Shown one piece after another: positions 12,941-35,507 of a stretch of 64,000 nt of DNA (positions are counted from its first letter, which is position 1; every line of letters begins with the position of its first letter). The DNA is from an uncultured Nitrospiraceae bacterium. GTDB taxonomy: Bacteria > Nitrospirota > Nitrospiria > Nitrospirales > Nitrospiraceae. Under the pieces are notes generated by a model. That model saw nothing but the letters and a program-made list of their open reading frames with translations. It did not search any database and had not been told where the DNA came from. The translations under genes and the position numbers were made by a program. The DNA is taken from the NCBI GenBank assembly GCA_963846575.1, contig CAWJWJ010000002.1:1184001-1248000 (forward strand), read 5' to 3'.

Positions 12941-12950
12941 AAGCGCGGCC

Positions 12951-14339: not shown

Positions 14340-14364
14340 GACGCATGAGAACGCCTGATCCACA
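14340..14364 (-). promoter_or_regulatory. putative ECF-sigma promoter for the PepSY gene (TGTGGATC-N13-CGTC)
   Basis: Nearly identical to the exbB site. Confidence 0.6.
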
Positions 14365-14499
14365 CCGGAGCGAAGGGGCGGAGCTGTCATGACATGGCCG
14401 GATGTACAGGCATCCGTTGATCGTGTGATCTGAGATCTGACTCATCCTGAGACATTCTTGGCGGTGATGTGTCAGCCCGGCTTAAATCGGTCACCGGGG

Positions 14500-14524
14500 T
14501 GAAGTGTCGCCGATCTCACACGTC
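14500..14524 (+). promoter_or_regulatory. putative ECF-sigma promoter for the small zinc-ribbon ORF (TGAAGTGT-N13-CGTC)
   Basis: Same TG...CGTC spacing, 38 nt upstream of the ATG at 14563. Confidence 0.45.
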
Positions 14525-14562
14525 ATAAGAGTGAGGGCACCTGCGTGGAGTGAGCGGATGAG

Positions 14563-14742
14563 ATGGACATGAACAGAACCGACCTACCGGTCTCCGGCGA
14601 AGATGTGCGTTGTATCTGCGGCCGGATGACGGCCCGGCTTGAACCCCATGGGCTGGTCATCAAGTGCCAGCGTTGCGGGAATCTGGTCGTGATCACCTTG
14701 TCAACGATCAAGGGTCTGAACAAAGTGCGCAAACTGCCATAA
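14563..14742 (+). CDS. 59-aa zinc-ribbon protein (Com-like), absent from the ORF track
   Basis: Manual translation: MDMNRTDLPVSGEDVRCICGRMTARLEPHGLVIKCQRCGNLVVITLSTIKGLNKVRKLP*, with an RCxCG...IKCxRC pattern. Confidence 0.7.
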   Translation: MDMNRTDLPVSGEDVRCICGRMTARLEPHGLVIKCQRCGNLVVITLSTIKGLNKVRKLP

Positions 14743-14923
14743 TCGCCCGCCATCGTGGCGCGTTGTCGCTCCGTGTGAGGCCGGCAGCGCCTGTCCTTCC
14801 GTTCCTGTTCACACCGCTTGTCCGTGAGACACGAGCCGCCGGCCTCGAGAGGAGGCCGGCGGCTTGCAGCGGCCGAGGAGACATCCGCCGGGATACCCGA
14901 TTGCAGATTGTCCCGCGCGACGC

Positions 14924-17503: not shown

Positions 17504-17580
17504 TATTCCCCCTGAGGTCTTGTCGCCCGGATCATTTCTTTCACTCGCACGTCATTCGGAGCCGGTTCACATCAGGTATA

Positions 17581-17605
17581 GACGGACAGGGCCAAAAAAC
17601 TTGCA
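17581..17605 (-). promoter_or_regulatory. putative ECF-sigma promoter for the receptor (TGCAAGTT-N13-CGTC)
   Basis: TGCAAG-N15-CGTCT matches the site upstream of the NRPS operon in hexamer and spacing. Confidence 0.65.
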
Positions 17606-17702
17606 GTGAGAAAGCGGCGCAATCGGAGAAAATGCAGCAAAAAAAGAGCATGCAGCAGGGCCGGAGAAACGACGGGGAGCAAGCGGGTGTTTCGGTCGCG
17701 GA

Positions 17703-18680
17703 TCAGTGCAGCAGGACGAGGTAGGGCGACAGAGCCGTTTCATGAATGGCGAGGGTCCGATGAATCGTCCGCAGAGCGGCATCCGGATCAGCCAGATCAA
17801 ATACGCCGGTGACCTTGAGCGGGCGGAGGGCCGGATTCAAAATGACGATGCGTCCATGACGATAGCGATTGAGCTCGTCGACGACCTCCGCCAATGGCCG
17901 GGCTTCGAAGATCAACTTGCCTCGTTGCCATGAGGTTTCCGTTTGCATGTCGATGTGGTGAGCCTCGCCCATGCCCTGCCGGTCGGAGAAGAACACCTGT
18001 TCGCCTTCGTTCAATGTCAGGGAGGCCGTGGTGGTGGTCTCCGGCGCATCGACCCGGACGTTGTGCTCCAGGACCGTCACCGAGATGCGATCCGGATGGA
18101 GGCGGACCGAAAAGACGGTGCCAAGCGCGCGGGTGTGGAGTGACTGGCTATGGACGGTAAACGGGCGATCCGGATCATCTATGACTGTAAAGGACGCCTC
18201 TCCCCGGATGAGCACGATGTCTCGTTGTTCCTCCGAGAAGGCGACGTTGACGGCCGTATTGGTATTCAGTTGGATTCTGCTGCCATCCTCCAGGGTCACC
18301 GTGCGTAGCTCGCCCACCCCGGTCTGATGATCGGCCGTCACCGCTCTGAGCCAGACCCCGACGGATTCCATGAGGAGCGCGCCGGTGATCAGGGCGAGAC
18401 AGGCTGCCAGGGTCCAGGCGGTTCTCCGTGATCGCCGGTGCGACCCTTTCGGTGATGGAGTGGAGTCGGGAGAGGGTACGCGTCCGATGTCCATCCACAG
18501 CGATTCAGCCGTGCGATAGGCCCGGTCATGAGCGGGGCTCCGACGTCGCCACGCGTCACAATCCGCCCGGATACCGTCTGAAGCATGGCCCGAGTGAATC
18601 CGGACCAACCACTCGAGCGCTTCATCCAGGAGGTCATCCGGCGATTCCGGAGTGGTTCGAGGGGAGAAATCTTCGGGCAT
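17703..18680 (-). CDS. fecR: FecR-family anti-sigma/sensor
   Basis: EALEWLVR...W...SPAH N-terminal domain, TM helix, and LEDGSRIQLNTNT, GEASF and ALGT.F motifs. Confidence 0.93.
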   Translation of the reverse strand: MPEDFSPRTTPESPDDLLDEALEWLVRIHSGHASDGIRADCDAWRRRSPAHDRAYRTAESLWMDIGRVPSPDSTPSPKGSHRRSRRTAWTLAACLALITGALLMESVGVWLRAVTADHQTGVGELRTVTLEDGSRIQLNTNTAVNVAFSEEQRDIVLIRGEASFTVIDDPDRPFTVHSQSLHTRALGTVFSVRLHPDRISVTVLEHNVRVDAPETTTTASLTLNEGEQVFFSDRQGMGEAHHIDMQTETSWQRGKLIFEARPLAEVVDELNRYRHGRIVILNPALRPLKVTGVFDLADPDAALRTIHRTLAIHETALSPYLVLLH

Positions 18681-18746
18681 CCGTTGTTCCGTCTTATCGG
18701 TTGGCGAACTCGATCGCCTACCCACTAGGGTCGTTCTACCCTATAA

Positions 18747-18771
18747 GACGGATCAACGGGATCTTTCAACA
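18747..18771 (-). promoter_or_regulatory. possible ECF-sigma promoter for fecR (TGTTGAAA-N13-CGTC)
   Basis: Same spacing, located in the fecI-fecR gap. Confidence 0.4.
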
Positions 18772-18785
18772 ATGAACGGCTTTGA

Positions 18786-19298
18786 TCATGCCGGATCCTG
18801 CATCCTCGATCGACAATGCTTCAAGGCCTGGATGATGTATTTCGCCACCATACTTTCCGACACACCGAGAGTGCGAGCGATTTCCTTATGGGTTTTGCCG
18901 TCCAGCCGGTTGAGTAGTAATGCGCTCCTGCACTTGACCGACAGCTCTTGCATGGCCGCCTCCAACAGGACGACCCGTTGCTTCGCGTCGAGCGTGTCCT
19001 CGGCGTTGGGGGCGAAACTGGCAGTCTCCTCCTGCAGCGGTTCGACACTCAAGACGCCTCTGCGAGTCCTGGCCTTTCGCAGATAGTCGATGGAGAGATT
19101 GGCTGCCACGCGGAAAAGAAATGCGCGGGGATTCCGGACCGCGATGGTCTCGCCCATGCGCACCAGATGCACATAGGTTTCCTGCGCACAATCAGCCGCC
19201 AGGTCACGGCATCCCAATTTGCGCGTAAAAAAACGGAGCAGGTCCTGGTGATACTCCTGAAATGCGGAGAGACAGGGGAGTGCGTGATCGGTTTCCAT
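18786..19298 (-). CDS. fecI: FecI-like ECF sigma-70 factor
   Basis: Region 2 (A.D..QETY...RAFLFRVA.NL.ID..R) and region 4 (G..HKEIA..LGVSESMV.KY). Adjacent to fecR. Confidence 0.93.
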   Translation of the reverse strand: METDHALPCLSAFQEYHQDLLRFFTRKLGCRDLAADCAQETYVHLVRMGETIAVRNPRAFLFRVAANLSIDYLRKARTRRGVLSVEPLQEETASFAPNAEDTLDAKQRVVLLEAAMQELSVKCRSALLLNRLDGKTHKEIARTLGVSESMVAKYIIQALKHCRSRMQDPA

Positions 19299-19310
19299 AA
19301 TGTATAGGTC

Positions 19311-20246
19311 CTATTCCAGGCGATAGCCGATGGGCAGTTGTACAACGATGTCTGGTTGGCCGAGCGGATGCTTCAACGGGATCGGAGAGGTACGCTTGAG
19401 GAGTGCGATGGCGTCGTGATCCAGGGTCGGATGTCCCGAGCTTTCGATCACGGTGACCTCCCCCACATGGCCATCTTCTCTCACGACCGCCTGCAGCAGC
19501 ACGTGGCCTTCCAATCCGTCGGTTTTGGCTGTCTGAGGGTATCGCTTGAGTTGTTCCACCCTCGTGAACAGAACCTGTGCGAGCCACGAATAATCGGCGT
19601 GAATTGTCTGCGTCACGGACGGATCGCGATCCTGTGGAAGGGGGCGGCGGGCGATCCGGACCCTCTCCTCAATCGAAGGTTCGGATGCCAACCGTGATGG
19701 CTCTGCTACGTCCACCGCAGGAGGGGGAATGTCTGCGGAGACCGGCTCATCTGCCGGAACAATCGCGGTCGATTCCGGTGCGCTGTGGCTGGAGTCGGTC
19801 CGGGGACTCGACGGCTCGGTCATGGCCATGTCCCGGGAAGGCGGTGCGTGGTGAGTCGGCTTGCGTGGAAGCAAGGGAGTTCGTTTGGAGGACTCCGCGC
19901 GGGGAGGTTCATCGATCGGCAGGTTGGAAGGTGCCGCCCCCTGTAAGGAACTCGCGAGGATCGGTTCATGAGGCGCCGTTTCAGAAAGCCCGGATGCGGA
20001 TGCGCTCCCTTGAGTGGTCACCAGGCGGCGGGTGGAGGCGGCAGGGACCGGCGTCGGCAGATCGGAACTGATCGGTTCCGGATGGGGGGCGGAGATCAGC
20101 GACACGTCCCATTGAAAGGACCGTTCGCGAGGGAGAACCGTAAAGTCCGCCGCCAGCACCACTGCAGTGCCGACGCCAAGGGCATGCAGCAAGAGGGATA
20201 ACATCCAGCCCCCGATCCTGGGCAGGGCGTCACGATTGACGCTCAT
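19311..20246 (-). CDS. tonB: second TonB-family energy transducer
   Basis: SLLLH TM motif, Pro/Ser-rich linker, and YP..A...G.EG.V...SSG...LD C-terminal domain. Confidence 0.9.
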   Translation of the reverse strand: MSVNRDALPRIGGWMLSLLLHALGVGTAVVLAADFTVLPRERSFQWDVSLISAPHPEPISSDLPTPVPAASTRRLVTTQGSASASGLSETAPHEPILASSLQGAAPSNLPIDEPPRAESSKRTPLLPRKPTHHAPPSRDMAMTEPSSPRTDSSHSAPESTAIVPADEPVSADIPPPAVDVAEPSRLASEPSIEERVRIARRPLPQDRDPSVTQTIHADYSWLAQVLFTRVEQLKRYPQTAKTDGLEGHVLLQAVVREDGHVGEVTVIESSGHPTLDHDAIALLKRTSPIPLKHPLGQPDIVVQLPIGYRLE

Positions 20247-20758
20247 CGGAGTCCTACCTGCACAACCTGTTGCCTTCGAAATTCGGAAGGCGAGCAGCCC
20301 ATGACACGTTTGAAGAAGTGACTGAATGCGAAGGAGTCACTGAATCCAAGCCGCTCCGCTATATGAGCAAGCGGGAGGTCATGATCCCGTAACAGGCCGG
20401 TTGCCCTGGTGATCCGGAGAGTTTTGACATAATGCGAGAAACACACACCCATCCGAACGCGGAAGAACTCAGAACAATACTTCTGGGAATAGCCGAGAAA
20501 GTTTGACAGGTCTTTGAGGGTGACTCGTTCTTTCAGATGCTCGGAGAGAAAAGTTTGCAAGCGCTGTTGCATGCTGTCGGAAGAGGTCGCCGGTCCCCCG
20601 GCTTGTGTGCGGGCAAGGGGAGTCGGAATCCTGACCTCATGAATCGGGAGTGGTTCATGCGGTTCGGCCGCACGTGCCGGGCACAATCGCGGGCTGACCT
20701 GCTGTCGGGTATCCGGACGGTCGGTGTGAAGATCCCGGGATAACGCTTGTATCATCAT
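20243..20758 (-). CDS. AraC-family regulator (HTH domain only)
   Basis: C-terminal IAERLGFSDSFAFSHFFKRVMGCSPSEFR signature, AAGGA RBS, and ATGA overlap with tonB2. Confidence 0.85.
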   Translation of the reverse strand: MMIQALSRDLHTDRPDTRQQVSPRLCPARAAEPHEPLPIHEVRIPTPLARTQAGGPATSSDSMQQRLQTFLSEHLKERVTLKDLSNFLGYSQKYCSEFFRVRMGVCFSHYVKTLRITRATGLLRDHDLPLAHIAERLGFSDSFAFSHFFKRVMGCSPSEFRRQQVVQVGLR

Positions 20759-21350: not shown

Positions 21351-24300
21351 ATGTGCACAATGTTGAGACAACCACCTTCCGGCAAGCGTCACACCGTGAT
21401 CGATATTCTTCGCGCGCGGGACTCCTCGACCCCCGCGCGCAGAGCCTATACGTATTTGCGTGATGGAGAGACCGACGAACAATGGCTTGACTATCACGAA
21501 CTGGACCGCCGCGCCCGGGGGATCGCGGCCTGGTTGCAATCCTATGGGGCCGCCGGCGAACGCGCCCTCCTGTTGTATCCTCCCGGTCTGGACTACCTTG
21601 CGGCCTTTTTCGGCTGCCTCTATGCCGGAGTGATTGCAGTGCCGGCCTATCCCCCCCAACGGGAACGGGGCATGCCTCGCGTGCTGTCCATACTCCAGGA
21701 TTCACGGGCTGCCTATGCGTTGACCACCCACTCCATCCATCAGGCCATCGGAAGGCTCTCGCCGCGCGACGGTGGACTCGAGCAGCTTGCCGGGCTGCGG
21801 TGGCTGACTACCGATACCGGCGAACCCGGCGCCGAAGACTCCTGGCAGCACCCCGACATCGACGCGGATACCCTGGCATTCCTCCAATACACATCCGGCT
21901 CGACCGGCCAGCCGAAGGGCGTCATGGTCAGCCATGCCAACCTGTTGCATAACCAGCGAATGATTCAGGACGCTTTCGGCCATACGGAACGGGACTGCAT
22001 CGTGGGGTGGTTGCCCCTCTACCATGATATGGGGCTGATCGGGAATGTGCTGCAGCCGCTGTTCCTCGGTGTCCCTTGCGTGCTCATGTCGCCGATACAT
22101 GTCCTGCAAAAGCCGGTGCGTTGGCTGTCCGCGATTTCGCGGTACCGTGCGACCACCAGCGGGGGGCCCAATTTCGCCTTCGATCTCTGCGTGCGCCAGA
22201 TCACGCCCTCACAGCGGGCTTCGTTGGATTTGAGTAGCTGGACGGTGGCGTTTAACGGAGCAGAGCCTGTTCGAGCCGGCACCATCGAACAATTCGCTCG
22301 AACGTTTGCCGGGTGTGGATTCAGGCGGGAGGCGTTTTATCCCTGTTACGGACTGGCCGAGGCAACCCTCCTGGTCGCTGGTGGGACCGCCAACGCTCCA
22401 CCCGTGACGCGAGAGTTCGATCAGTCAGGTCTCAATCTCCATGCCGGGACACAACCGATGGGGACGGGTCATCCCACGCCGGTGCTCGTAGGTTCCGGTG
22501 TCGCCCGGCTCGAACAACTGATTCGCATTGTCCGTCCGGAATCAAGCACCTCCTGCCCGGATGGTCAGGTCGGAGAGATCTGGGTCAGCGGGCCGAGTGT
22601 CGCGCAGGGGTATTGGGGACAGGAACTGGAAACGTGCGCAACCTTTATGGCCAGGCTTGCCGATACCGGAGAGGGCCCGTTTTTACGCACGGGGGATCTG
22701 GGGTTCGTGCACGAAGGCGAACTGTTCGTCACCGGCCGGTTGAAAGATCTCATCATCATTCGTGGGCGCAACCACTATCCGCAGGACATCGAACGTACCG
22801 TGGAGGACAGCCATCCGGCGCTCAGGCCCGGCGGGGGAGCGGCCTTTTCCGTCGTGGAAAGGGACGAGGAACAGTTGGTTGTAGTCCAGGAGATCGAACT
22901 CCGTGCCCGGAACATCAACCATGACGCGATCATGGCTGACATTCGCCGGGCCGTGACGAGACAGCATGAAGTGCCGGTCTTTGCCGTCGTCCTCATCAAG
23001 GCGGGGCATCTGCCCAAGACGTCCAGTGGAAAGGTCCAGCGAAGCCTCTGCCGCACCAGATTCCTCGAACAGGCCTTCGAGGTGATCGGGCAGGCCCTTG
23101 CCCCCGCACCATTACAGGCCGGCGACCTCAGCACATCATTCGAGGCGGTCAGGCGAGGCGGGGTGGCATCGGAAAGGAATCTTGACCAGCTCGTCACGGA
23201 GATCTGGGCGGGGGTATTGAATCAACCGAACATCGGACCACAAGACGATTTCTTCGCGCTGGGCGGCGATTCGCTACGCGGCACGCAGGTGCTGGCCCGC
23301 CTGCGTGAGGAGGGCCGGATCGAGGTGCCCTTGGAGACGCTGTTCGATTTTCCGACTCTGGCGGACTTCGTCAGCCACATCGGGACCAGGACGCCCGCTG
23401 CTCCTGCCGAGGACGGCGTCGCGATGCGGCCCGCTCGGCCGGAGGATCCACAGCCGCTCTCGCGGACTCAGGAGCGCTTCTGGTTTCTCGAGCAACTCTC
23501 ACCTGGCACTCCCGTCAACAATGTTCCCGTCGCGCTGAGGCTGCAGGGGCGACTCGATGTCGAGACCCTTCGCCGTTCCCTGCAGGAAATTTTACGGCGC
23601 CATGACATCCTCCGGGCCCGGTGCATACTCCGTGACGGTCGACCGGCACAGATCATCGCGCCGACTCTCGACCTTTCTCTGGCCGTCGAGGAGTTGATCC
23701 CGATAGGCGAAACGGATCCGGAGCGCCAGCTCCGGCAGGCACTCGATCAAGAGGCGGTCCAGCCGTTCGATCTGATGACGGGGCCTTTGCTCCGGCTCCG
23801 TCTATTCCGGATGGCGGACTGGGATCATGTCTTGTCGCTGACGCTGCATCACATCGTGACAGACGGCTGGTCGATGGGAATCGTCAGTCGCGAGTTGGCC
23901 GCGCTGTACGAGGCCTTTGTGAACCGCCGTGTATCTCCGCTTCCCCCTCTTCCCATCCAGTATCTCGACGTGGTGGCGGGTGAGCGCGAGGATCACCGGG
24001 AAGCGCTCTACAGAAGGCAGATCGAATATTGGCGACAGCGTCTGGAGGATGTTCCCGCCCTATTGAGGCTGCCATACGATCGGGCGCGGCCGGAGGTGCA
24101 GAACTATCGTGGGGCGCGTCACCGCTGGACGGTGGAGGCGGCGCTCGTGCGCAGGCTGCAGAACATCGGGCATCAGCAGCGGGCGACGTTGTTCATGACG
24201 CTGTTGGCGGCCTTCGACGTGCTCTTATCCCGCTACAGCGGCCAGGCGGACTTCTGCGTGGGCACGCCGGTGGCCAATCGAAACCGGATGGACTGGGAGC

Positions 24301-27110
24301 CGCTGGTCGGCTGCTTCGTCAACACCGTCGCTCTTCGTGCCGATCTGTCGGGCAATCCTTCCTTCACCGCCTTCCTCGCGCAAGTCCGGGCGACCGTACT
24401 GGGCGCACAGGCCCATCAGGAGGTTCCGTTTGAACGGGTCGTCGATGACCTACGGGTCGCGCGAGACCTGGGGCATACGCCGCTTTTTCAAGTGATGTTC
24501 CTGTTGGAGGACCGTCTCTCGGACCTGCCATCGTTCGGATCTCTATCGACCGGCAGGATGGAGGTGAACACCCGGACCTCGGTGTTCGATCTCACCGTGG
24601 AAATGGTCCTCGGTGCCGACGGCGGCCTGACCGCGGTGTTTGAATACAGTATCGAGTTGTTCGATCGCGACAGGATCGTGCGCCTCGCCGGACACTTTCA
24701 TACGCTGCTGAATGAAATCGCCACCGCCCCGGAGTCGCGGATTGGCGATCTGACGCTGCTCACGGCGCATGAAACCCGTCAGGTTCTCGTTGAGTGCAAC
24801 AACACCCGCGCGTCCTATCCGGAAGAGTCATGCCTGCATCAATTGATGGAGGACAGGGTGTCCCGGACCCCGGACGCCGTGGCCCTGTCCTGCGAGGGGC
24901 GGTCCTATACCTACGCCGAGCTCAATCGCAGGTCGAATCAACTCGCGCGCTATCTCCGTGCGCACAAGGCCGGTCCGGAAACTCCGGTCGCCCTCTGCGT
25001 CGAACGATCGCTCGAGATGGTGGTCGGCCTATGGGCCACTCTCAAGGCCGGTGCGGCCTATGTGCCCATCGATCCTGCCTATCCACGATCCCGACAGGTC
25101 GCGATTCTCGAGGACGTGCAACCGAAATTGGTCCTGACGCAACAGCAGTTCGCGAATGATCTGTCACGAAGCGGCGCTCCCGTTTGTGCGATGGACTCCG
25201 GATGGGCCGCGGCAGCCGGGTATCCTGACGGCAATCTGCCCAACCTTTCCCGTCCCGATAATCTGGCCTACCTCCTGTACACCTCGGGAACGACCGGGCA
25301 ACCCAAGGGGACCGGCATTTCGCACCGCGCACTGGTCAACCACAGCATTGCCATCGCGGCACGGTATGGTCTTGTCCCGACCGATCGGGTGCTCCAATTC
25401 GCTTCGGTCAGTTTCGACGTCGCGGCGGAGGAATGTTTTCCGTCATGGCTCGCGGGGGCGACGGTGGTGGTGCGGCCCAATGCGCCTCTGCCGGCATTTT
25501 CTGATTTTCACGCCTTTCTCCGCGAGCAGCGGCTCACGGTCCTGAACCTGCCGACGCCTTACTGGGCCGGATGGGTGGACGAGATCGACAGGACCGGCCT
25601 GGCGATCCCGGCGGAGCTCAGGCTGATCGTGGTGGGGAGCGAAAAGGCCTTGCCTGAGAGCGTCATGAGGTGGCAGCGGGTTGCGGGGCCCCAGATCGGG
25701 TGGTGCAATTCGTATGGACCGACGGAAGCCACCATCACCGCGAGTTGTTATGTCCCGGAGCCGGACATGGATTGGACTCGCGCCCTCACTGTCCCGATCG
25801 GCCGGCCGATCGCGAATGTTGAACTCTACCTGCTGGATTCCCATCTCCGGCCCGTTCCCCTGGGAGTGCCGGGAGAACTCTATATCGGCGGAGCCGGCCT
25901 CGCTCGCGGGTACCATCGGTTGCCGGCGTTGACCGCCGGGAGATTCGTTCCCCATCCGTTCAGTTCACGTCCGGGAGAGCGCTTGTATCGAACCGGGGAC
26001 CGCGCCCGCCGACGGCCGGAGGGTGAGGTCGAGTTTCTGGGCCGCGTCGACGAGCAGGTGAAGGTTCGCGGCCATCGTATTGAACTCGGGGACATCGAGT
26101 GCCATGCGCGCCAACATCCGGACGTGAAGGAGTGCCGGGTGTTCCTGGAAGAGGGCGCTCTCCCGGAGTGGGCTGCACTCCTCAGCGGCGTGAGCCTGCA
26201 GGACCAGGAACGGATGCTCCGGGACGTCGAAAGCGTGACGGCGGCGGAGGCCCAATGGCTTCACCGAGTGGAATCGGATGCGGAGGAACGGAGGAAGACG
26301 GTGATTCAGAGAAAACCGGAGTTCGATGTGTACCTGAAAATTCATCACGGGGAGTTTGTGACTCCGCCGAAACAGAATCAGCGCAATTGGCTGCTGCGGC
26401 GGGCCCTCGACGAATTTTCAGATGATCTCGTGGCGCTCGACGCGATCTCAAAACGGTTGGTTTCCGGCTCCGAGCGGGTGGGCATCGAACAGGGGTGGAC
26501 GGGGAGCAGGGCCGATTATACACCGACCGAGCTCATCATCGAAGGACAGCAGGTGATGCAGGATTGGGAAGCGCCGTTGATGAAGGCGATGGCTGACATC
26601 GCCACCGAATCCCAGGGCGACGTGCTCGAGGTCGGATTCGGAATGGGCATCTCGGCCTCCTACATTCAGGCTGGACGACCGCGTTCCCACACCATCATTG
26701 AGTGCAACCAGGATGTCATGCAGGCGTTCGTCGCATGGTCCGCCGGATACCCCGATCGCGACATCCGGCTCGTCCAGGGCCGTTGGCAGGATGTGGTCGA
26801 TGGACTGGGCCGGTTCGACAGCGTGTTTTTCGATACCTACCCGGCCAGTGAAGCTGAATTCGAAGAATCGGTCATCAACAGTATCAACTTTGCCGAAGCG
26901 TTTGTGCCTGCTGCCGCCGGATTGCTGCGTCCGGGCGGGGTGTTTACGTATTACACGAATGAAATCGACTCCTTCAGCAGGCGGCATCAACGATTCCTGT
27001 TCCAACACTTCAGCTCCTTCACCCTCAGCATCGTGCGATCACTGCTACCGCCGGATGATTGCCACTATTGGTGGGCCGATTCGATGGCGGTGGTCAAGGC
27101 GGTGAAATGA
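21351..27110 (+). CDS. NRPS 1: FAAL-ACP-C-A(core, Arg-like)-insert-methyltransferase (GAMT/Rmt2-like)
   Basis: FAAL motifs (LQYTSGSTG.PKGV, WLPLYHDMGLIG), GGDSL ACP and HHIVTDG C domain. A motifs run up to a8 (GRVDEQVKVRGHRIELG), then VLEVGFGMG...HTIIECN...FDTYP. Confidence 0.93.
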   Translation: MCTMLRQPPSGKRHTVIDILRARDSSTPARRAYTYLRDGETDEQWLDYHELDRRARGIAAWLQSYGAAGERALLLYPPGLDYLAAFFGCLYAGVIAVPAYPPQRERGMPRVLSILQDSRAAYALTTHSIHQAIGRLSPRDGGLEQLAGLRWLTTDTGEPGAEDSWQHPDIDADTLAFLQYTSGSTGQPKGVMVSHANLLHNQRMIQDAFGHTERDCIVGWLPLYHDMGLIGNVLQPLFLGVPCVLMSPIHVLQKPVRWLSAISRYRATTSGGPNFAFDLCVRQITPSQRASLDLSSWTVAFNGAEPVRAGTIEQFARTFAGCGFRREAFYPCYGLAEATLLVAGGTANAPPVTREFDQSGLNLHAGTQPMGTGHPTPVLVGSGVARLEQLIRIVRPESSTSCPDGQVGEIWVSGPSVAQGYWGQELETCATFMARLADTGEGPFLRTGDLGFVHEGELFVTGRLKDLIIIRGRNHYPQDIERTVEDSHPALRPGGGAAFSVVERDEEQLVVVQEIELRARNINHDAIMADIRRAVTRQHEVPVFAVVLIKAGHLPKTSSGKVQRSLCRTRFLEQAFEVIGQALAPAPLQAGDLSTSFEAVRRGGVASERNLDQLVTEIWAGVLNQPNIGPQDDFFALGGDSLRGTQVLARLREEGRIEVPLETLFDFPTLADFVSHIGTRTPAAPAEDGVAMRPARPEDPQPLSRTQERFWFLEQLSPGTPVNNVPVALRLQGRLDVETLRRSLQEILRRHDILRARCILRDGRPAQIIAPTLDLSLAVEELIPIGETDPERQLRQALDQEAVQPFDLMTGPLLRLRLFRMADWDHVLSLTLHHIVTDGWSMGIVSRELAALYEAFVNRRVSPLPPLPIQYLDVVAGEREDHREALYRRQIEYWRQRLEDVPALLRLPYDRARPEVQNYRGARHRWTVEAALVRRLQNIGHQQRATLFMTLLAAFDVLLSRYSGQADFCVGTPVANRNRMDWEPLVGCFVNTVALRADLSGNPSFTAFLAQVRATVLGAQAHQEVPFERVVDDLRVARDLGHTPLFQVMFLLEDRLSDLPSFGSLSTGRMEVNTRTSVFDLTVEMVLGADGGLTAVFEYSIELFDRDRIVRLAGHFHTLLNEIATAPESRIGDLTLLTAHETRQVLVECNNTRASYPEESCLHQLMEDRVSRTPDAVALSCEGRSYTYAELNRRSNQLARYLRAHKAGPETPVALCVERSLEMVVGLWATLKAGAAYVPIDPAYPRSRQVAILEDVQPKLVLTQQQFANDLSRSGAPVCAMDSGWAAAAGYPDGNLPNLSRPDNLAYLLYTSGTTGQPKGTGISHRALVNHSIAIAARYGLVPTDRVLQFASVSFDVAAEECFPSWLAGATVVVRPNAPLPAFSDFHAFLREQRLTVLNLPTPYWAGWVDEIDRTGLAIPAELRLIVVGSEKALPESVMRWQRVAGPQIGWCNSYGPTEATITASCYVPEPDMDWTRALTVPIGRPIANVELYLLDSHLRPVPLGVPGELYIGGAGLARGYHRLPALTAGRFVPHPFSSRPGERLYRTGDRARRRPEGEVEFLGRVDEQVKVRGHRIELGDIECHARQHPDVKECRVFLEEGALPEWAALLSGVSLQDQERMLRDVESVTAAEAQWLHRVESDAEERRKTVIQRKPEFDVYLKIHHGEFVTPPKQNQRNWLLRRALDEFSDDLVALDAISKRLVSGSERVGIEQGWTGSRADYTPTELIIEGQQVMQDWEAPLMKAMADIATESQGDVLEVGFGMGISASYIQAGRPRSHTIIECNQDVMQAFVAWSAGYPDRDIRLVQGRWQDVVDGLGRFDSVFFDTYPASEAEFEESVINSINFAEAFVPAAAGLLRPGGVFTYYTNEIDSFSRRHQRFLFQHFSSFTLSIVRSLLPPDDCHYWWADSMAVVKAVK

Positions 27111-27111: not shown

Positions 27112-27762
27112 ATGGCGACCATTCTTGAACGCATCGACCGGCTTTCCGAGGCCCAACGCGCCTTGCTCCGGCTCCGGCTGGGAGGGACAGAACGGGCGAC
27201 GGCGGGCGAATCGCGCCTGGTCGGGTACATCGTCCCGCGCGGGGAGCGGAGGGACCTCGCTCCTGACCTGCGTGAATTTCTCCGCGAGCGTCTTCCGGAT
27301 TACATGGTGCCCGGTGCCTGGATCGTCATCGACTCGTTCCCCATGACCTCCCGGGGGAAGGTGGATCGAGCCGCCTTGCAGGGGATGGCCCGGTCGGCCT
27401 GGCCCGCGGAGTCCCGCGGAGGAGTCCCTCGAAACGATTGCGAGCGGGCCATTGCGGACATCTGGAAAGAGGTGCTCGGCCTGCCCGTCATGGGGCTGCA
27501 AGACAACTTTTTCGATTTGGGGGGCCACTCCCTGCTGCTGCCGAAAGTCCTCGCCAGGGTGCGCGAGCTGGCGCAGCGGGAGGTTTCGATGGTGGATCTG
27601 TTCCGCTATCCGACGGTGCAGGCACTTGCCGCCTATGTGGCGGGTGAATCGCGACCCGTCGAGGAGGGCGACAGCGGTGATCACGCGAAGGGCAAGCGGG
27701 AGGCCGGGATCCGCCGGATGACACAACGGCGGCGGAGACAGGCGGCGTTGAGGAGCGAATGA
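27112..27762 (+). CDS. stand-alone A-subdomain (a9-a10) plus PCP protein completing module 1
   Basis: RLVGYIVP, LPDYMVP and P(M)TSRGKVDR with the a10 Lys, then DNFFDLGGHSL. Docking-like N-terminus. Confidence 0.9.
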   Translation: MATILERIDRLSEAQRALLRLRLGGTERATAGESRLVGYIVPRGERRDLAPDLREFLRERLPDYMVPGAWIVIDSFPMTSRGKVDRAALQGMARSAWPAESRGGVPRNDCERAIADIWKEVLGLPVMGLQDNFFDLGGHSLLLPKVLARVRELAQREVSMVDLFRYPTVQALAAYVAGESRPVEEGDSGDHAKGKREAGIRRMTQRRRRQAALRSE

Positions 27763-30700
27763 CGAACACAGCGGAACAGGGTGACGGGAGTCAGGCCGGT
27801 GGAGGGTTGGACATCGCCGTAGTCGGGATGGCCGGGCGGTTTCCCGGCGCGCGGAATCTGGAGTCGTTCTGGCAGAACCTCCGGGACGGCATCGAGTCGG
27901 TCTCCACGCTCAGCCGGGAAGACCTGCTGGAGTCCGGGGTGGATGAGCAGGTCCTCGATCGGCCGAATTATGTGAGGGCCCGGGCGTTGCTCGATGACGT
28001 GGATCTTTTTGACGCCAGGTTGTTCAACATGACCCCGAACGAAGCCGCCAGCATGGATCCGCAGCAACGTCTGTTGCTTGAGTGTGCCTGGGAGACGCTC
28101 GAGCAGGCGGGTTATGACCCGGAGCAGTACGGCGGGACGATCGGCGTTTATGCGGGATCGAGCAGTAGCGGCTATCTATTCAACCTGTTTCCCCGCCGGA
28201 CGCTTCTCCAGTCGGCAGCCGACATGTCGGCGATGCTGGGGGTGGAAAAGGATGCCCTCTCGACGCGCGTCTCGTACAAATTGAATCTGGAAGGGCCGAG
28301 TCTGGCCGTGCAAACGGCCTGCTCGACGTCCCTGGTCGCAGTCCATCTGGCCTGCCAGGGCCTCTTGAGCGGTGAGTGCGACATGGCCTTGGCAGGCGGC
28401 GTGTCGGTCACGGTGCCGCAGAAAGTCGGCTATCTCTACCAGGAGGGCGGCATCGTCTCGCCGGATGGTCATTGCCGCGCCTTTGATGCCGACGCTCAAG
28501 GAACCGTCGGAGGAAGCGGCGTCGGACTCGTCCTGCTGAAGCGACGGCAGGAAGCGGAAGCCGACGGCGATCAGGTGCTGGCCATCATCAAGGGCTCCGC
28601 CATCAATAACGACGGCGCGGCAAAGGTCGGCTATACGGCTCCCCGGATCGAAGGGCAGGCCAAGGTCATCAAGGCCGCGCATCTGGCGGCCGGTGTGACG
28701 CCGGAATCGATCTCCTATGTGGAGGCCCATGGGACAGGGACTCCGATGGGCGATCCCATTGAAGTCGCGGCCTTGACGCAGGCCTTTCGGGCCTCCACGG
28801 ACCGCAGCGGTTTTTGTGCGCTCGGCTCCGTGAAGACGAATATCGGTCATCTGGATGCCGCCGCCGGAATTGCCGGACTCATCAAGACCATCCTGGCACT
28901 CTCCCACCGGCAGATCCCGGCCAGTTTGCATTACGTGCGATCGAATCCCGCGATCGATTTTGCACAGACTCCGTTTTATGTGAATGCGGCACTGAAGGCA
29001 TGGCCACGCGGTGATAACCTGCGACGGGCCGGCGTCAGTTCGTTCGGATTGGGCGGAACGAACGCGCATGTGGTGCTCGAAGAAGCCTCTCCTGCCGGCA
29101 GGGCTCAGTCCCCGGCGCGGGATTCCGGCTCTCAGCTCCTGGTGTTGTCTGCAGGGTCGGAGAGGGCCTTGAGCCAAGCGACGGACCGTCTCGCCGCGCA
29201 TCTTGGCAACCATCCGGATCTTTCCCTGGCCGACGTCGCGCACACGCTTCAGGCGGGCCGCAAAGCACTTCCCTACAGGCGGTGGGTGGTGGCAACCCGG
29301 ACGGCTCAGGCCGCGGAGTTGCTTGCCCGGCCGGGGCTTGCGGGTGCCACGTCCGGCCCTGTCGGCGGCGGGCGGCGGGCGGCGTTCATGTTTTCCGGAC
29401 AGGGCGCGCAATATCCGGGCATGGGGCAGGCGCTGTATGCGGAGCAGTCGGTGTTCCGCGAGCAGGTGGATCTGTGCGCCTCTCTGTTGCAGCGACAACT
29501 GGGGCGTGACATCCGGTCGATTCTCTTCGCGAACCGCCCGGAGGACCAGGACCTCATTCACCAAACGGTGCTGACTCAGCCGGCGTTGTTCGTCTTTGAG
29601 TATGCTCTTGCCCGGCTGTGGATGAGCTGGGGAGTTATCCCCTGCGCCATGATCGGACATAGCCTGGGGGAATACGTAGCCGCTTGTTTGTCAGGAGTCT
29701 TTTCCCTGGAAGACGCGTTGGCGGTCGTGGCTCGGCGGGGGCGGCTCATGCAGGACACGGTTCCGGGAACCATGCTGGCCGTTCCACTCGCCGAGTCGGA
29801 AGTAGCGCCGTTCCTTCGCGCGGGAGTCGACCTCGCGGCAGTGAATGCTCCCGCCCAATGCGTGTTGTCCGGCCATGAGGAGTCCCTCGCCGCGCTGGAT
29901 CAGGAGTTGACGGCCCGGGGCATCAAGAGCCGTCGGCTGCGGACATCGCACGCGTTTCATTCCTCCACGATGGATTCCGTGTTGAAACCGTTTGAATCGT
30001 TTCTTGCCGGCCTCACGATGCATCCCCCTCGAATCCCCTGGGTTTCAAATGTGACCGCCGGGTGGATTCACCGTGATCAGGCGGTGGACCCGCGCTACTG
30101 GGCACGTCATCTGCGCTCGACGGTCCGGTTTTCGGATGGCATCAAGACCCTGCTGGAGCAGGGCGGGCCGATCCTGCTCGAAGTCGGACCAGGCCGCACG
30201 TTGCAGCACCTGGCCCGGCGGCACGCGGGGCAGACCGGACTGTCCGCGGTGGCCTCCTTGAATGGAGCCGGACCGGCCAGCTCCGGGCAGCCTGAGATGT
30301 CCGCCCTGCTGACGACGCTCGGATCACTCTGGGGAGCCGGTGTCTGCCCCGATTGGAACGGTTTGTACGCGGGAGAACCGCGCCGCCGGGTGCCGCTTCC
30401 GACCTATCCGTTCGAACGGCAGCGTTATTGGGTGGAACCTGATTCATCTCATGCAGGCCGGAAGACGGAGCGGTCCGACAGACGCCTCGACATGTCGAGA
30501 TGGGCCTATCAGCCCTCATGGAAGCGATCAGTGTTAGGGGGAGGCAGCCACGCCCGTCCGCAGGAACAGTGGCTTGTCTTCGTGGAGGAACCGCGCGTCG
30601 GGATGGCCTTGGTGAATCACCTGAATACGCTGGGGCACCAGGTCACGACCGTGCTGGCGGGACAGGCCTTCGAACGGCGCGACGGCGATACCTACCTCGT

Positions 30701-32327
30701 TCGCGCCGATTCTCGGGAAGACCATGATCGGCTCCTGCGGGATCTGAAGACGCGGGGACGGCTACCCTCCAACATCGTGCAGGCCTGGACGATCGGCGAA
30801 GAAACTCCAGCCGCCCCTGCGACGGTGCAATTCAACGGGGCTCAAGAAAAAGGATTTTTTCATCTGCTGCTTCTTGCACAGGTGTTCGGACGGCGGCGCG
30901 GAGAAGGGTGTTCGATCCTGGTGCTGTCTCAGGGCCTTCACGATGTCACCGGTCGTGAGCGGTTGCGCCCGGAACAGGCGACTCTGCTGGCGGCCTGCCG
31001 TGTGATTCCCCAGGAATACCCCCGCCTGACCTGCCGCCTGCTCGACCTCGACGACCACGACGTCGCGCACACCCTCTCGGAGGCATCCTGCCACCGGCTG
31101 ACGGCTGAGGTCGGTGCTCCGGCAGGCGAGGCAATCGTCGCCTATCGGGGACCGCACCGCTGGGTGCAGACATTCGAACCACTGCCTCTGCCGGAAGGGA
31201 AACCCATGTCCGGCCTGTTGCGAGAAGGAGGCGTTTATCTGATCACGGGAGGGCTTGGCGGGGTCGGACTCGCCCTGGCGGACTACCTGATCCGCACCCT
31301 GCAGGCCCGCGTCATTCTGACCAGCCGGTCGCTGCCGAATGGTGAGCAACAAGAGGTGCTAGCCGGGCTCGAACGACTGGGCGGGAAGGTCTTGCCGCTT
31401 CAAGCCGATGTCGCCGATCTCCCTCAGATGCGTGCGGCGATTGCGGAAGCCGGGCAACGATTCGGGTCCATCCATGGGGTATTCCATGCCGCTGCGGTTG
31501 CCGGCGGCGGCCTCATTGATCGAACCACTCCGGAATCCGTCCGGGATGAATTCCGTCCGAAGGTCGCGGGGGCCTTGGTGCTGGAAGAGGCGCTACGGGA
31601 GGCCCCTCCGGAGTTCGTGCTGTTCTGTTCCTCGTTGACGGCCGTGGTGGGTGGGATCGGGCAGGTCGCCTCTTGCGCGGCCAATGCTTTCCTGGACGCC
31701 ATGGCGCATGCCAGCACGAGCGCACGCATGCCTGTCCTGTCGGTGAATTTCGACCGTTGGTCTCAGGTCGGCATGGCGGTGCAGGCCGAGGCTCGCATGA
31801 AGGCCCTGGGATTGAGCGACGAGGCGTTGGATGGGATGAGCCGTCGGGAGGGACAGGACGTTGTCCATCGGATCCTTCAGGGAGCGGCCCTGCCGCAGGT
31901 CGTGGTCTCCATTCGAGAGTTGTCGACCGTTGCGACCTCGGTCACTCAACTGGCCTTGGCTCAATTTCACGGGCCTGATCAGACGGCGGGACACGATGTG
32001 GCTCCGTCAGCGACCATCGCGGAGGGACAGGACGTGTCGGAGCAGGAAGTGGCCCGGCTCTGGCAACAGTTGTTGGGCATCGATCGGGTGGGGGTGGACG
32101 AGGATTTTTTCCGATTGGGTGGGGAGTCCTTGAGCGCGCTGCAGATCTTGAATCGCGTCCAGGAACGCTTCGGGGTCGAACTGTCGCTGAGGGATTTTTA
32201 CGCCGCGCCGACCGTGCAGGGCTTGACGCAGCAGATTCGCGGGGCACGCAGCGCCGGGGAACAGCCTGAAGTGAAACTCCTGCCGCTCCCGCGAGAGGCC
32301 CGGCGTCTACGGGGAGCCTCCGTATGA
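27759..32327 (+). CDS. type I PKS module KS-AT(malonyl)-KR-ACP
   Basis: KS: TACSTS, HGTGT, NIGH. AT: GHSLG and HAFH. KR: GGLGGVG. ACP: GGESL. Confidence 0.95.
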   Translation: MTNTAEQGDGSQAGGGLDIAVVGMAGRFPGARNLESFWQNLRDGIESVSTLSREDLLESGVDEQVLDRPNYVRARALLDDVDLFDARLFNMTPNEAASMDPQQRLLLECAWETLEQAGYDPEQYGGTIGVYAGSSSSGYLFNLFPRRTLLQSAADMSAMLGVEKDALSTRVSYKLNLEGPSLAVQTACSTSLVAVHLACQGLLSGECDMALAGGVSVTVPQKVGYLYQEGGIVSPDGHCRAFDADAQGTVGGSGVGLVLLKRRQEAEADGDQVLAIIKGSAINNDGAAKVGYTAPRIEGQAKVIKAAHLAAGVTPESISYVEAHGTGTPMGDPIEVAALTQAFRASTDRSGFCALGSVKTNIGHLDAAAGIAGLIKTILALSHRQIPASLHYVRSNPAIDFAQTPFYVNAALKAWPRGDNLRRAGVSSFGLGGTNAHVVLEEASPAGRAQSPARDSGSQLLVLSAGSERALSQATDRLAAHLGNHPDLSLADVAHTLQAGRKALPYRRWVVATRTAQAAELLARPGLAGATSGPVGGGRRAAFMFSGQGAQYPGMGQALYAEQSVFREQVDLCASLLQRQLGRDIRSILFANRPEDQDLIHQTVLTQPALFVFEYALARLWMSWGVIPCAMIGHSLGEYVAACLSGVFSLEDALAVVARRGRLMQDTVPGTMLAVPLAESEVAPFLRAGVDLAAVNAPAQCVLSGHEESLAALDQELTARGIKSRRLRTSHAFHSSTMDSVLKPFESFLAGLTMHPPRIPWVSNVTAGWIHRDQAVDPRYWARHLRSTVRFSDGIKTLLEQGGPILLEVGPGRTLQHLARRHAGQTGLSAVASLNGAGPASSGQPEMSALLTTLGSLWGAGVCPDWNGLYAGEPRRRVPLPTYPFERQRYWVEPDSSHAGRKTERSDRRLDMSRWAYQPSWKRSVLGGGSHARPQEQWLVFVEEPRVGMALVNHLNTLGHQVTTVLAGQAFERRDGDTYLVRADSREDHDRLLRDLKTRGRLPSNIVQAWTIGEETPAAPATVQFNGAQEKGFFHLLLLAQVFGRRRGEGCSILVLSQGLHDVTGRERLRPEQATLLAACRVIPQEYPRLTCRLLDLDDHDVAHTLSEASCHRLTAEVGAPAGEAIVAYRGPHRWVQTFEPLPLPEGKPMSGLLREGGVYLITGGLGGVGLALADYLIRTLQARVILTSRSLPNGEQQEVLAGLERLGGKVLPLQADVADLPQMRAAIAEAGQRFGSIHGVFHAAAVAGGGLIDRTTPESVRDEFRPKVAGALVLEEALREAPPEFVLFCSSLTAVVGGIGQVASCAANAFLDAMAHASTSARMPVLSVNFDRWSQVGMAVQAEARMKALGLSDEALDGMSRREGQDVVHRILQGAALPQVVVSIRELSTVATSVTQLALAQFHGPDQTAGHDVAPSATIAEGQDVSEQEVARLWQQLLGIDRVGVDEDFFRLGGESLSALQILNRVQERFGVELSLRDFYAAPTVQGLTQQIRGARSAGEQPEVKLLPLPREARRLRGASV

Positions 32328-32367
32328 CGCAGTGCATGAACGAATGTGCAGCGGGAGACGGGATGCG

Positions 32368-34104
32368 ATGAGCCTTTTCCGGTTTCTGATTCGGATTTCC
32401 TGGCGGCTGCTGCTCTGTTCCATGGCGGCTGGCGTGGTCAGCGGTCTGGCGGGCGCCGCCATCATCGCGGTCATCCATAAGACCATGAACGGAAGCGACG
32501 TCTCGTCCTCGCTGGCGTGGGGGTTTGTCGCACTGGCCCTCCTGGTGGCTGCGTCGAAAGCGCTCTCTGAAATCCTGCTGACCAGACTCGGCCAAAGCAC
32601 CATTGCGCACGTACGGATGCAACTCAGCCGCGGCATCCTGGAGGCGCCACTTCGCCAGGTCGAGGAGCTGGGCCATCCTCGATTGCTGGCTGCCCTGACC
32701 GACGACACGGATGTCATCGCGCAGGCCTATGTGCAACTGCCGCTGATCTGCGTCAACGTGGCGACGACGGTCGGCTGCCTCGCCTATCTGGGGTGGCTCT
32801 CGTGGCCGATGCTCCTGCTCGTCCTGGCCTGTATGCTGCTCGGCACCGTCACCTTTCAGCTGCAGGAACGACGCGCCTTACGGTTCTTCACCAGCGCGCG
32901 CGACACCAACGACAGCCTCTTCCGGCATTTCAGGTCCATCATGGCGGGGATCAAGGAACTCAAGCTGCACCGGTCACGGCGGCGCGAATTTCTCGACCTG
33001 GCGCTCCAGCGGACGGTCGACTCCTACCAGCGCGACTTCACGCGCGGGATGACCGTCTATTCCATCGCGTCAAGCTGGGGCGCGTTGCTCTTCTATGCCG
33101 TCATCGCAGTCGTCCTCTTCATCTGGCCATCCTGGCAGCCACTGCCCCTGGAGACCGTCGTCGGTGCCGCCCTGGTGCTCCTGTACATGATGGGTCCGTT
33201 TTCGCAGATCGTCGAATTGCTGCCGGGCGTCGGACGGGCCAACGTCGCGCTGCGGAAAATCGAAACGCTCGGATTGTCGCTGGCCGCCTCCAGTGTGGCC
33301 GGAGGTGACGGGGAGCGGCAGCGCCGCGCGCCGGGGATCGATCCGGTCGGATGGCGGAGGCTCCAATTGTCCGGCATCACGCACCGGTATGCCCGTGAAG
33401 CGGAGGACTCCAGCTTTTCCATGGGACCGGTCGACCTCGATTTTGCTCCCGGTGAAGTGACGTTTCTCATCGGAGGAAACGGCAGCGGCAAGACCACGCT
33501 GGCCATGGTGCTGCTGGGACTCTATTCACCCGAGTCGGGGACGATCCGCCTCGACGGTGTCGAGATCGATGAGTCCAACCGGGACGAGTACCGGCAGTTG
33601 TTTTCGACGGTGCTCTCGGATTTTTACCTGTTCGAGAGTCTGCTGGGAATCCGGAAAGCCGCACTCGATGCGGAAGCCCTCGCCTATTTGGAGCGATTGC
33701 AGCTGCGATCCAGGGTGCGGATTGAACGGGGTGTGTTCTCGACCCAGGCGCTTTCCCAGGGACAGCGGAAACGGCTCGCCCTGTTGACGGCCTATGTCGA
33801 AGACCGGCCCTTCTACGTCTTTGATGAATGGGCGGCTGATCAGGATCCATTGTTTCGCAGGGTCTTTTATACGGAACTGCTGCCTGACCTGAAAGCACGA
33901 GGCAAGACGGTGCTCGTGATTACGCACGACGATCAATATTTTTCGGTCGCCGACCGGTGCGTGCGGATGGATTACGGCCGGATCGTGACGGTGTCCAGGC
34001 CCGGCGGCACGTTTGACGAGCCGGACTGTGTCCTGTCGCATCCCGGTCATGCGGGCCCCGATCCGGTGCGCCGGGATTCATTGTCAAAGGAGAAGCAGTT
34101 ATGA
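32368..34104 (+). CDS. cyclic-peptide/siderophore export ABC transporter (PvdE/SyrD family)
   Basis: TM domain plus GGNGSGKTT, LSQGQRKRLAL and DEWAADQDP motifs. Confidence 0.93.
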   Translation: MSLFRFLIRISWRLLLCSMAAGVVSGLAGAAIIAVIHKTMNGSDVSSSLAWGFVALALLVAASKALSEILLTRLGQSTIAHVRMQLSRGILEAPLRQVEELGHPRLLAALTDDTDVIAQAYVQLPLICVNVATTVGCLAYLGWLSWPMLLLVLACMLLGTVTFQLQERRALRFFTSARDTNDSLFRHFRSIMAGIKELKLHRSRRREFLDLALQRTVDSYQRDFTRGMTVYSIASSWGALLFYAVIAVVLFIWPSWQPLPLETVVGAALVLLYMMGPFSQIVELLPGVGRANVALRKIETLGLSLAASSVAGGDGERQRRAPGIDPVGWRRLQLSGITHRYAREAEDSSFSMGPVDLDFAPGEVTFLIGGNGSGKTTLAMVLLGLYSPESGTIRLDGVEIDESNRDEYRQLFSTVLSDFYLFESLLGIRKAALDAEALAYLERLQLRSRVRIERGVFSTQALSQGQRKRLALLTAYVEDRPFYVFDEWAADQDPLFRRVFYTELLPDLKARGKTVLVITHDDQYFSVADRCVRMDYGRIVTVSRPGGTFDEPDCVLSHPGHAGPDPVRRDSLSKEKQL

Positions 34105-35507
34105 CGGCTCATGTCGACGAGATGTGGCAGGCAATTCCGACCGGCGTCACGCCTCCCATCGAACAGCCCGGGACCAATCCCTATTTGGAGCGGCAGGCCC
34201 TGAGAGAATCGAATGCGCGCAGTTATCCCCGGCGGCTGCCGTTGGCGCTCAGCAAGGGCAAAGGCATTTACGTTCAGGATGTCGAGGGCCGGACCTATAT
34301 CGATTGCCTGGCTTGCGCCGGAGCCCTGGCCCTCGGGCACAACCATCCCGTCGTGGTGGAGGCGATCAATCGAATGCTGCGGGACGGCCTGCCGTTCCAA
34401 ACGTTGGATTTGACGACTCCCGCCAAGGATCGCTTCGTCGAGCGGCTGTTCGGCTCCCTGCCGGAGAAATTCGCCGACGGCGCGAAAATCCAGTTCTGTG
34501 GTCCGTCCGGTGCGGACGCCGTCGAGGCCGCGATCAAGCTGGTCAAGATCGCGCGTGAACGGCGGTCCATCCTCGCCTTCCAGGGCGCCTATCACGGGAT
34601 GACGCATGGCACGTTGGGACTGACGGGTCATCTGGCTCCGAAACATGCCGTGAGCGGGCTCATGCCCGATGTTCATTTCCTGCCCTATCCCTATGCCTAT
34701 CGTTGCCCGTTCGGCGTCGGCGGCGAAGAAGGGTCTCGTCTTTCCAGTGCCTATATCGAACGATTGCTGGACGACCCCAACAGCGGAATCGTCGAACCGG
34801 CCGGCATGATCCTGGAGGTCATCCAGGGCGAAGGAGGTGTCGTGCCCGCGTCACTGAGCTGGCTGCGGGACATCCGCCGTATCACAGGGGAACGGGGGAT
34901 TCCGCTGATCGTGGATGAAGTGCAAACCGGCTTGGGCCGCACGGGCTCGCTCTACGCATTCGAGCAGGCCGACATCGTGCCGGATGTCGTCGTGTTGTCG
35001 AAGGCGATCGGCGGCGGCCTGCCGTTGAGCGTGGTGGTGTACCGGCCGGAACTGGATCGGTGGACGGCGGGGGCCCATGCGGGCACCTTCCGGGGAAACC
35101 AACTGGCCATGGCCACCGGAGAGGCCACCATCGAATTCGTCTGCCGCGAGCGGTTGGACGTTCATGCGGCCAGGATGGGTGAACGCTTGATGAGCCACCT
35201 GCATCGCATCCAGGCAGAGGCGCGAAGCCTCGGTGATGTGCGGGGCCGCGGCCTGATGATCGGGGTGGAGATCGTCAATACCGGCGAGTCGCCGGATCGA
35301 TCGGGGGCGTTCGCCGCTGCGCCGGCAGTGGCGAGCCGCATCCAGCAGGAAGCGTTGCGCCGCGGGCTGATTCTCGAACTCGGCGGCCGGAACAACAGCG
35401 TGGTGCGATTCCTGTCGCCGTTAATCGTGACGGCGGATGACATCGACAGGATCTCGACGATCTTTTCCGAAGCCGTGAGAGCGGCGGAGCGGGAGTGCGC
35501 TGCATGA
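34101..35507 (+). CDS. diaminobutyrate--2-oxoglutarate transaminase (PvdH/Dat family)
   Basis: ESNARSYPRRLP, DEVQTG.GRTG, SKAIGG and HAGTFRGNQ motifs. Fits the Dab-specific modules. Confidence 0.93.
   Translation: MTAHVDEMWQAIPTGVTPPIEQPGTNPYLERQALRESNARSYPRRLPLALSKGKGIYVQDVEGRTYIDCLACAGALALGHNHPVVVEAINRMLRDGLPFQTLDLTTPAKDRFVERLFGSLPEKFADGAKIQFCGPSGADAVEAAIKLVKIARERRSILAFQGAYHGMTHGTLGLTGHLAPKHAVSGLMPDVHFLPYPYAYRCPFGVGGEEGSRLSSAYIERLLDDPNSGIVEPAGMILEVIQGEGGVVPASLSWLRDIRRITGERGIPLIVDEVQTGLGRTGSLYAFEQADIVPDVVVLSKAIGGGLPLSVVVYRPELDRWTAGAHAGTFRGNQLAMATGEATIEFVCRERLDVHAARMGERLMSHLHRIQAEARSLGDVRGRGLMIGVEIVNTGESPDRSGAFAAAPAVASRIQQEALRRGLILELGGRNNSVVRFLSPLIVTADDIDRISTIFSEAVRAAERECAA

Follow-up and report, generated by a model that had tools for sequence, protein, structure and literature searches.

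How can an adenylation (A) domain of a nonribosomal peptide synthetase (NRPS) work when its gene ends in a methyltransferase (MT) before the domain is complete? The question is raised by a stretch of 64,000 nucleotides (the window) from an uncultured Nitrospiraceae bacterium (GenBank assembly GCA_963846575.1, contig CAWJWJ010000002.1, positions 1,184,001 to 1,248,000), which holds the open reading frame (ORF) 21351-27110, here called NRPS1 (Table 1). Its A domain runs to motif a8 (residue 1564, at 26040) and is followed by an MT in the place between a8 and a9, as in interrupted A domains, but is not resumed in the NRPS1 polypeptide, which stops at 27110. ORF 27112-27762 (216 aa), which starts one base past the stop, encodes motifs a9 (27292) and a10 (27355) as well as the T domain, and the A domain is thus divided between two genes. 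An initial annotation, made from the sequence alone, had the A domain break off after a8, which is true of the polypeptide and not of the module, as a9/a10 and T continue on the next gene. The motifs that it quoted all lie in the ORF where it placed them (QVMQDWEAPLM at residue 1734, GDVLEVGFGMGISA at 1756, HTIIECN at 1780, GRWQDV at 1810 and FDSVFFDTYP at 1822). Its unrecognised insert of ~125 residues dissolves into ~40 residues of docking-like helices (~1606-1645) and the first ~85 residues of the MT, the latter assigned to the MT because free MT genes of other loci begin at the equivalent of residue ~1647. The stop at 27110 was considered as a sequencing artefact and ruled out, since the order stop, one base, start is present in 13 of the 13 Nitrospira-type loci printed and the split recurs across phyla. 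A programmed +1 frameshift joining both ORFs was weighed and set aside: neither the stop codon nor the base after it is constant, spacing is larger in other phyla, and the ribosome-binding-like codons do not vary.

By sequence and by model the MT is a member of the family of guanidinoacetate N-methyltransferase (GAMT), with a likeness far beyond chance. When the last 320 residues of NRPS1 were compared with the PDB by phmmer, GAMT (1xcj) was matched at E 7.5e-27, and the next entries, PRMT1 among them, reached only E ~0.1. The AlphaFold model of the MT (28-row alignment, mean pLDDT 92.5) has human GAMT 3orh as its best Foldseek match (E 1.8e-18), and VIA-align placed GAMT at Z 25.9 (rmsd 2.1 Å, 204 residues) with the next structure at Z 16.1. 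The resemblance to GAMT proposed at the outset is upheld by both routes. GAMT and the MT share the fold (35% identity over 204 residues), the S-adenosylmethionine (SAM) motif and an acid pair, E1740 and D1828 aligning to E45 and D134 of rat GAMT, which we take to be the acids of the guanidino site. However, GAMT itself is a free eukaryotic enzyme acting on a small molecule, whereas the NRPS1 MT is fused to an NRPS and carries an extra N-terminal hairpin and helix of ~60 residues. No significant Pfam or NCBIfam family was found for the MT region with a local Pfam library lacking PF27704; in the ESM Atlas the MT falls in clusters carrying PF27704 (GuanidinoAc_N-MeTrfase, Pfam 38.1). The nearest matches there include PF27704 clusters that are mostly viral (Uroviricota). 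The MT had been described as unlike the usual backbone N-MT and O-MT domains of NRPSs, and only one of 28 regex motifs for the M types I-VI of Lundy 2020 matched, namely the generic SAM motif of type IV. On this motif evidence the MT appears to fit none of the six catalogued types and stands outside the published catalogue of interrupted A domains (excerpts of PMC8341866), the comparison that the initial annotation had proposed. Identity as an ordinary backbone N-MT or O-MT was ruled out by the PDB sequence search, the fold comparison and the motif test.

The split is not peculiar to this genome. Genome loci with an MT alignment were retrieved for the best 80 of 423 confirmed relatives, and in none (0/80) does a continuous A domain run through the MT. 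The MT is fused behind an A core, with the next gene opening with the C-half of the small A subdomain (Asub), in 43; nine loci have three genes encoding the A core, the MT, and Asub-T; and four have Asub next with no A core seen ahead of the MT. The others are A-T-MT proteins (4), free MTs (19) and one frameshifted locus. Asub lies behind the MT in the same protein in 4 of 286 cases, two of which look frameshifted and two of which are true fusions with tandem MTs that keep the junction helix. In L026 (10959-16208) and in L004 an in-frame fusion joins the Asub-T protein to the polyketide synthase (PKS), and the split after the MT is still present. Tandem MT copies within one module are seen in P0002, P0003, P0036 and P0037, the first copy being degenerate in P0037.

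The three-gene loci indicate where the boundaries lie. The tail of their A-core protein is acidic, leucine-rich and helical and matches NRPS1 residues ~1606-1645, the free MT starts at the ~1647 equivalent, and the Asub-T protein opens with a basic helix. The acidic tail helices and the basic helix would form a docking pair, probably akin to known docking domains (excerpts of PMC9113145). Complex prediction of the two A-domain halves scored 0.58 against 0.00 for the best control (at least 90% of contacts agreeing between runs, partner pLDDT at least 74) and is graded weak, scores of 0.60 or less having been given to 18 of 157 solved pairs and to both passing mismatches and being more often wrong unless the pairing is likely beforehand, and halves of one domain being able to pass by likeness. 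By analogy, the small protein would complement the A core in trans. In corallorazine Crz1/Crz2 (excerpts of PMC11342130) an N-MT right after a8 likewise ends in a stop, a9/a10 and T lie on Crz2, and the proteins are active only when mixed; that MT, however, is a conventional type I backbone N-MT acting on Gly, and docking helices are unmentioned in those excerpts. The interrupted A domains catalogued as families 1-7 with M types I-VI likewise bear an MT of class I SAM fold in the a8-a9 loop, but in a single polypeptide, whereas the Nitrospira A domain is made of two (excerpts of PMC8341866).

The A domain likely activates Arg, although the margin is small. Motif-anchored extraction returned the code DVENVGSIT, with K517 on the next gene, and so reproduced the reading by eye, DVENVGSITK. 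By hand count against Table S12 of PMC12283262 (seen in excerpt), it agrees with the code Arg(26), DVENVGAINK, at 8 of 10 positions and with Lys(26) and Orn(26) at 7 of 10; code variants of orthologues agree with Arg codes at 9 of 10. The pocket segment compared with the PDB ranked ApnA A1 (93 bits), which is Arg/Tyr-specific (excerpts of PMC11253843), above CmnG (69) and the Lys enzyme Pls (48). Together with the retained acid pair, this code and pocket are in line with the Arg substrate proposed earlier. His as the substrate of this A domain was ruled out by the code and by retention of E and D in the MT.

The acid pair gains meaning from the wider family, in which 200 A segments upstream of family MTs were read for codes and a FastTree tree was built from 270 MT segments. 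A His code, DSALIAEVW, accounts for 53 of the 200, and the His-linked MTs group together in a single clade (support 0.999; 85 sequences, 66 of them His-labelled), which a tree of a 63-sequence subset also recovers (SH-aLRT 99.7). In this clade the E45 equivalent has become Q (80/85) and the D134 equivalent H (81/85). The MTs on Arg-like codes keep E in 73 of 84 and D in 84 of 84, and both acids are kept on DxW/LD-type codes (37/37), on DA[AS]D codes (14/14) and in actinobacterial free or A-T-MT copies (8/8), as well as in NRPS1. Several His-clade loci have Asub-T plus a C/E-like domain next, resembling the layout of corramycin module 3, where an NRPS-embedded MT is proposed to act on a side-chain N of the ring of His, not Arg, with an E domain next (excerpts of PMC10099666). 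A corramycin-like locus was not found in the 401 genomes sampled of the phylum of G202 (3 matches) or in 103 proteins, which is not proof of its absence. His-clade MTs also occur in cyanobacteria and planctomycetes (L072, L076, L094, and Stieleria and Rhodopirellula proteins), several beside TauD genes, and such neighbourhoods would predict N-methyl-(hydroxy)histidine peptides. In P0207, P0219 and P0222 a His-clade-type MT lies behind a terminal thioesterase, in NRPSs with unreadable codes.

Close relatives provide natural controls. Of 201 genomes of the family searched, 18 matched the MT region, 15 of them (this genome included) with full-length orthologues at 75% identity or more, and 26 matched the PKS, 22 at 73% or more. 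The 22 orthologous clusters occur in three states. Fifteen carry the MT, the split being seen directly in 12; in six (G040, G126, G198, G196, G154 and G046) the A-T is intact and a short linker takes the place of the MT; and one (G077) retains the split and the helices but has lost the MT in frame, and the rest of its genome holds no member of the MT family. In KS-AT and Asub-T trees G196 and G077 are nested with strong support among MT-bearing genomes, and therefore at least two secondary losses of the MT took place; the five-genome intact clade may be ancestral, the root support being 66-71. All 22 clusters share the code DVEN[IV]G[SA][IV]T, with or without the MT. The MT is therefore optional. 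Since the code is unchanged in MT-less orthologues, the residue that the A domain loads is probably unmodified and, by the code, would be Arg. In the Nitrospira variants L019, L028 and L033 the PKS has no KR and is fused with the NRPS modules behind it, whose residue order differs.

On-line delta-N methylation of Arg in the split module is considered fairly probable on these sequences and models. The FAAL would load a fatty acid, and the A core, joined in trans by the small protein (a9/a10 and T) through the helical pair, would activate L-Arg and load the T domain. The tethered MT would then use SAM to methylate T-bound Arg on its internal (delta) guanidino nitrogen, either before the C domain N-acylates the residue or afterwards. 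After extension by a malonyl unit on the PKS, the remaining line would build a lipopeptide siderophore with beta-hydroxy-Asp and beta-hydroxy-His. In the a8-a9 loop, the MT and the docking helices on either side of it would form an optional cassette. The delta-N position is suggested by GAMT and by BlsL of blasticidin S, a bacterial delta-N guanidine methyltransferase with 33% identity to GAMT (excerpts of PMC5572114). BlsL, however, is a stand-alone enzyme acting on an Arg-derived side chain of a released nucleoside, whereas the NRPS1 MT is NRPS-fused.

Several observations weigh against this reading. The acid pair is also kept by 37 MTs on non-E239 codes (DVLDTGxIG/DVWDxGxIG), and retention of E and D is therefore no proof of a guanidino substrate; a similar code, DSWDIGLIGK, is listed for Gln (excerpts of PMC12283262). 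Q replaces E in 11 of the 84 MTs on Arg-like codes, and the His switch appears to be a single evolutionary event, not 85. A single delta-N site needs no second MT copy, yet P0002 and P0003 have tandem copies. The Lys and Orn codes fall one position short of Arg. In this assembly a frameshift lies downstream, near 45723, and the catalytic Tyr of the KR reads as Ser.

It is unlikely, though the strongest of the alternatives, that Arg is methylated on a terminal (omega) guanidino nitrogen instead, or that the MT acts on free Arg or on the ketide-extended chain on the PKS ACP. The tandem MTs would suit multiple methylation, BlsL requires earlier acylation of its substrate, so that late timing is possible (excerpts of PMC5572114), and the N-terminal extension of the MT, absent from GAMT, is scarcely covered by the fold comparison. 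Yet PRMT1 stands at E ~0.1 against 1e-27 for GAMT, GAMT and BlsL are described as choosing another nitrogen than the PRMTs do (same excerpts), and the same A code in MT-less orthologues speaks against methylated free Arg as the A substrate. That the module loads Lys, Orn or citrulline, with methylation of an amine or ureido nitrogen, is quite unlikely: the family changed substrate at least once (to His) and occurs on Gln-like codes too, and Lys and Orn codes come close, but Arg codes fit better (8-9/10), the pocket ranks ApnA A1 and CmnG above Pls, and Arg is the residue listed for VarF, which has the same position in a FAAL-led siderophore line (excerpts of PMC12283262). An inactive passenger MT or a decaying cluster, making a product with unmethylated Arg or none, is improbable, since against the 7 of 22 clusters without MT, with two or more nested losses, and against the frameshift and the KR reading stand an MT region that is 75-79% identical in 14 other Nitrospiraceae genomes, with SAM and active-site motifs intact, and a frameshift due to a single additional base in a run of C, lacking in relatives and typical of assembly error.

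Within the open-access literature searched (subscription journals lay outside it), neither a GAMT-type NRPS domain nor NRPS-installed N-methyl-Arg was found described, and the main text of the interrupted-A-domain catalogue, as seen in excerpts of PMC8341866, is without arginine, guanidino or split. Precedents exist for the split and for the delta-N chemistry taken singly; no description appears to exist of the two combined, of how broadly the arrangement is spread over phyla or of the Arg/His switch. A seventh class of NRPS methylation domain is proposed tentatively, with confidence divided: a GAMT-derived side-chain N-MT cassette (docking helices, MT, stop, docking helix) would split the A domain at a8-a9, to be rejoined by docking, and a two-residue switch would turn it from guanidino (Arg) to imidazole (His), perhaps also amide or ureido, acceptors. 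In Nitrospira it would give delta-N-methyl-Arg siderophores, with the methyl acting as a switch at strain level that may serve receptor privacy. If so, engineered NRPSs could take up the cassette as a portable means of methylating side-chain nitrogens, and the two-residue rule E/D versus Q/H could predict the acceptor. The loci also show that A domains split at a8-a9 are common across phyla and no one-off. A testable structure would also follow for the siderophore of nitrite-oxidising Nitrospira, Ca. N. defluvii (L024) included, with MT-less strains as natural controls.

Family members also lie beside genes of arginine chemistry, an independent line of support for a guanidino substrate of the MT. 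In Amycolatopsis keratiniphila (L085, L102) a flavin amine oxidase gene is situated two genes away from a free MT; next come genes for a thioesterase, a UDP-glucose dehydrogenase, AMP ligases, an enzyme resembling aminolevulinate synthase and a large PKS. ECO-0501 is reportedly N-methylated at its guanidine. Its cluster has the same gene order, and its starter is Arg-derived 4-guanidinobutyryl-CoA (excerpts of PMC8037709). In L080, L084 and L101 a free MT immediately precedes large type I PKSs or lies close to them; the amidase, acyl-CoA ligase and oxidase-like genes of L101 suggest N-methylguanidino-starter polyketides. Streptomyces L069-L071 and L073 have an A-T-MT protein; in L069 it is followed by a GntD/VioC-type, Arg-hydroxylase-like gene (GntD 383 bits, cut-off 345; VioC 316, below 418.6) and by ATP-grasp-like and thioesterase genes, and this small cluster may make a methylated, hydroxylated Arg peptide.

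In its cluster, NRPS1 is followed by a PKS whose GHSLG/HAFH motifs presumably mark a malonyl-type AT. The extracted codes, with the labels Dab (diaminobutyrate), Ser, Asp and Gly of the downstream modules as we take them to be, give acyl-Arg*-ketide-Dab-Ser-Dab-Ser-Asp-Gly-His-Ser-TE as the predicted product; the last NRPS gene extends past the window to window-equivalent 69280. The TauD hydroxylases, Dab transaminase, acylase, exporter and adjacent block of TonB receptor, FecR, ECF sigma factor and Fur make a siderophore likely. A search with a Fur consensus gave 0 matches at up to 3 mismatches. Variochelin-type systems presumably have an unsplit A domain and an unmethylated guanidine. They share the FAAL-ACP-C-A(Arg)-T start, one PKS module and the iron-uptake context, VarF being listed with an Arg code (excerpts of PMC12283262), but differ in their downstream residues from those predicted here.

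Table 1. Coordinates of features in the window.
Feature	Position	Strand	Remarks
Iron-uptake block: Fur, PepSY, TonB-dependent receptor, FecR, ECF sigma, TonB, AraC	12383..20758	-	Fur on + strand
NRPS1: FAAL-ACP-C-A(core, a1-a8)-docking-like helices-GAMT-like MT	21351..27110	+	1919 aa, stop at end
A domain core and N-half of small subdomain	24849..26147	+	code DVENVGSIT(K), Arg-type
Docking-like helical segment, residues ~1606-1645	26166..26285	+	C-terminus of A-core proteins in three-gene loci; none in intact orthologues
GAMT-family MT, ~270 aa	26289..27107	+	N-terminal hairpin and helix ahead of the GAMT core
E1740; D1828	26568; 26832	+	aligned to rat GAMT E45; D134
Ribosome-binding-like stretch within last MT codons	27096..27104	+	two fourfold codons invariant, 13/13 Nitrospira-type loci
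Small protein: N-terminal docking-like helix, A subdomain C-half (a9, a10 with catalytic Lys), T domain	27112..27762	+	
PKS, KS-AT-KR-ACP (GHSLG/HAFH)	27759..32327	+	KR catalytic Tyr position is Ser at 31671-31673
Cyclic-peptide ABC exporter, diaminobutyrate transaminase, penicillin-amidase/PvdQ-like acylase, type II thioesterase	32332..38978	+	
Two TauD-family hydroxylases and downstream NRPS genes	39004..64000	+	predicted Dab-Ser-Dab-Ser-Asp-Gly-His-Ser-TE

The statine-like unit once proposed is on firmer ground for the relatives, which keep the KR Tyr (13 Nitrospira-type KR rows printing the motif; TAT in L042), than for this copy, in which the codon reads TCT; if the Ser is real, the unit would be beta-keto, not beta-hydroxy. 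The +1 frameshift at ~45723, where NRPS2 passes from the frame of 39903 to that of 45733, is absent from the paralogous module as well and is probably an assembly error; an error at the KR codon is also plausible. At the start of the window, two adjacent P-type cation ATPase genes (22-4634) lie in a stretch of higher GC (0.68).

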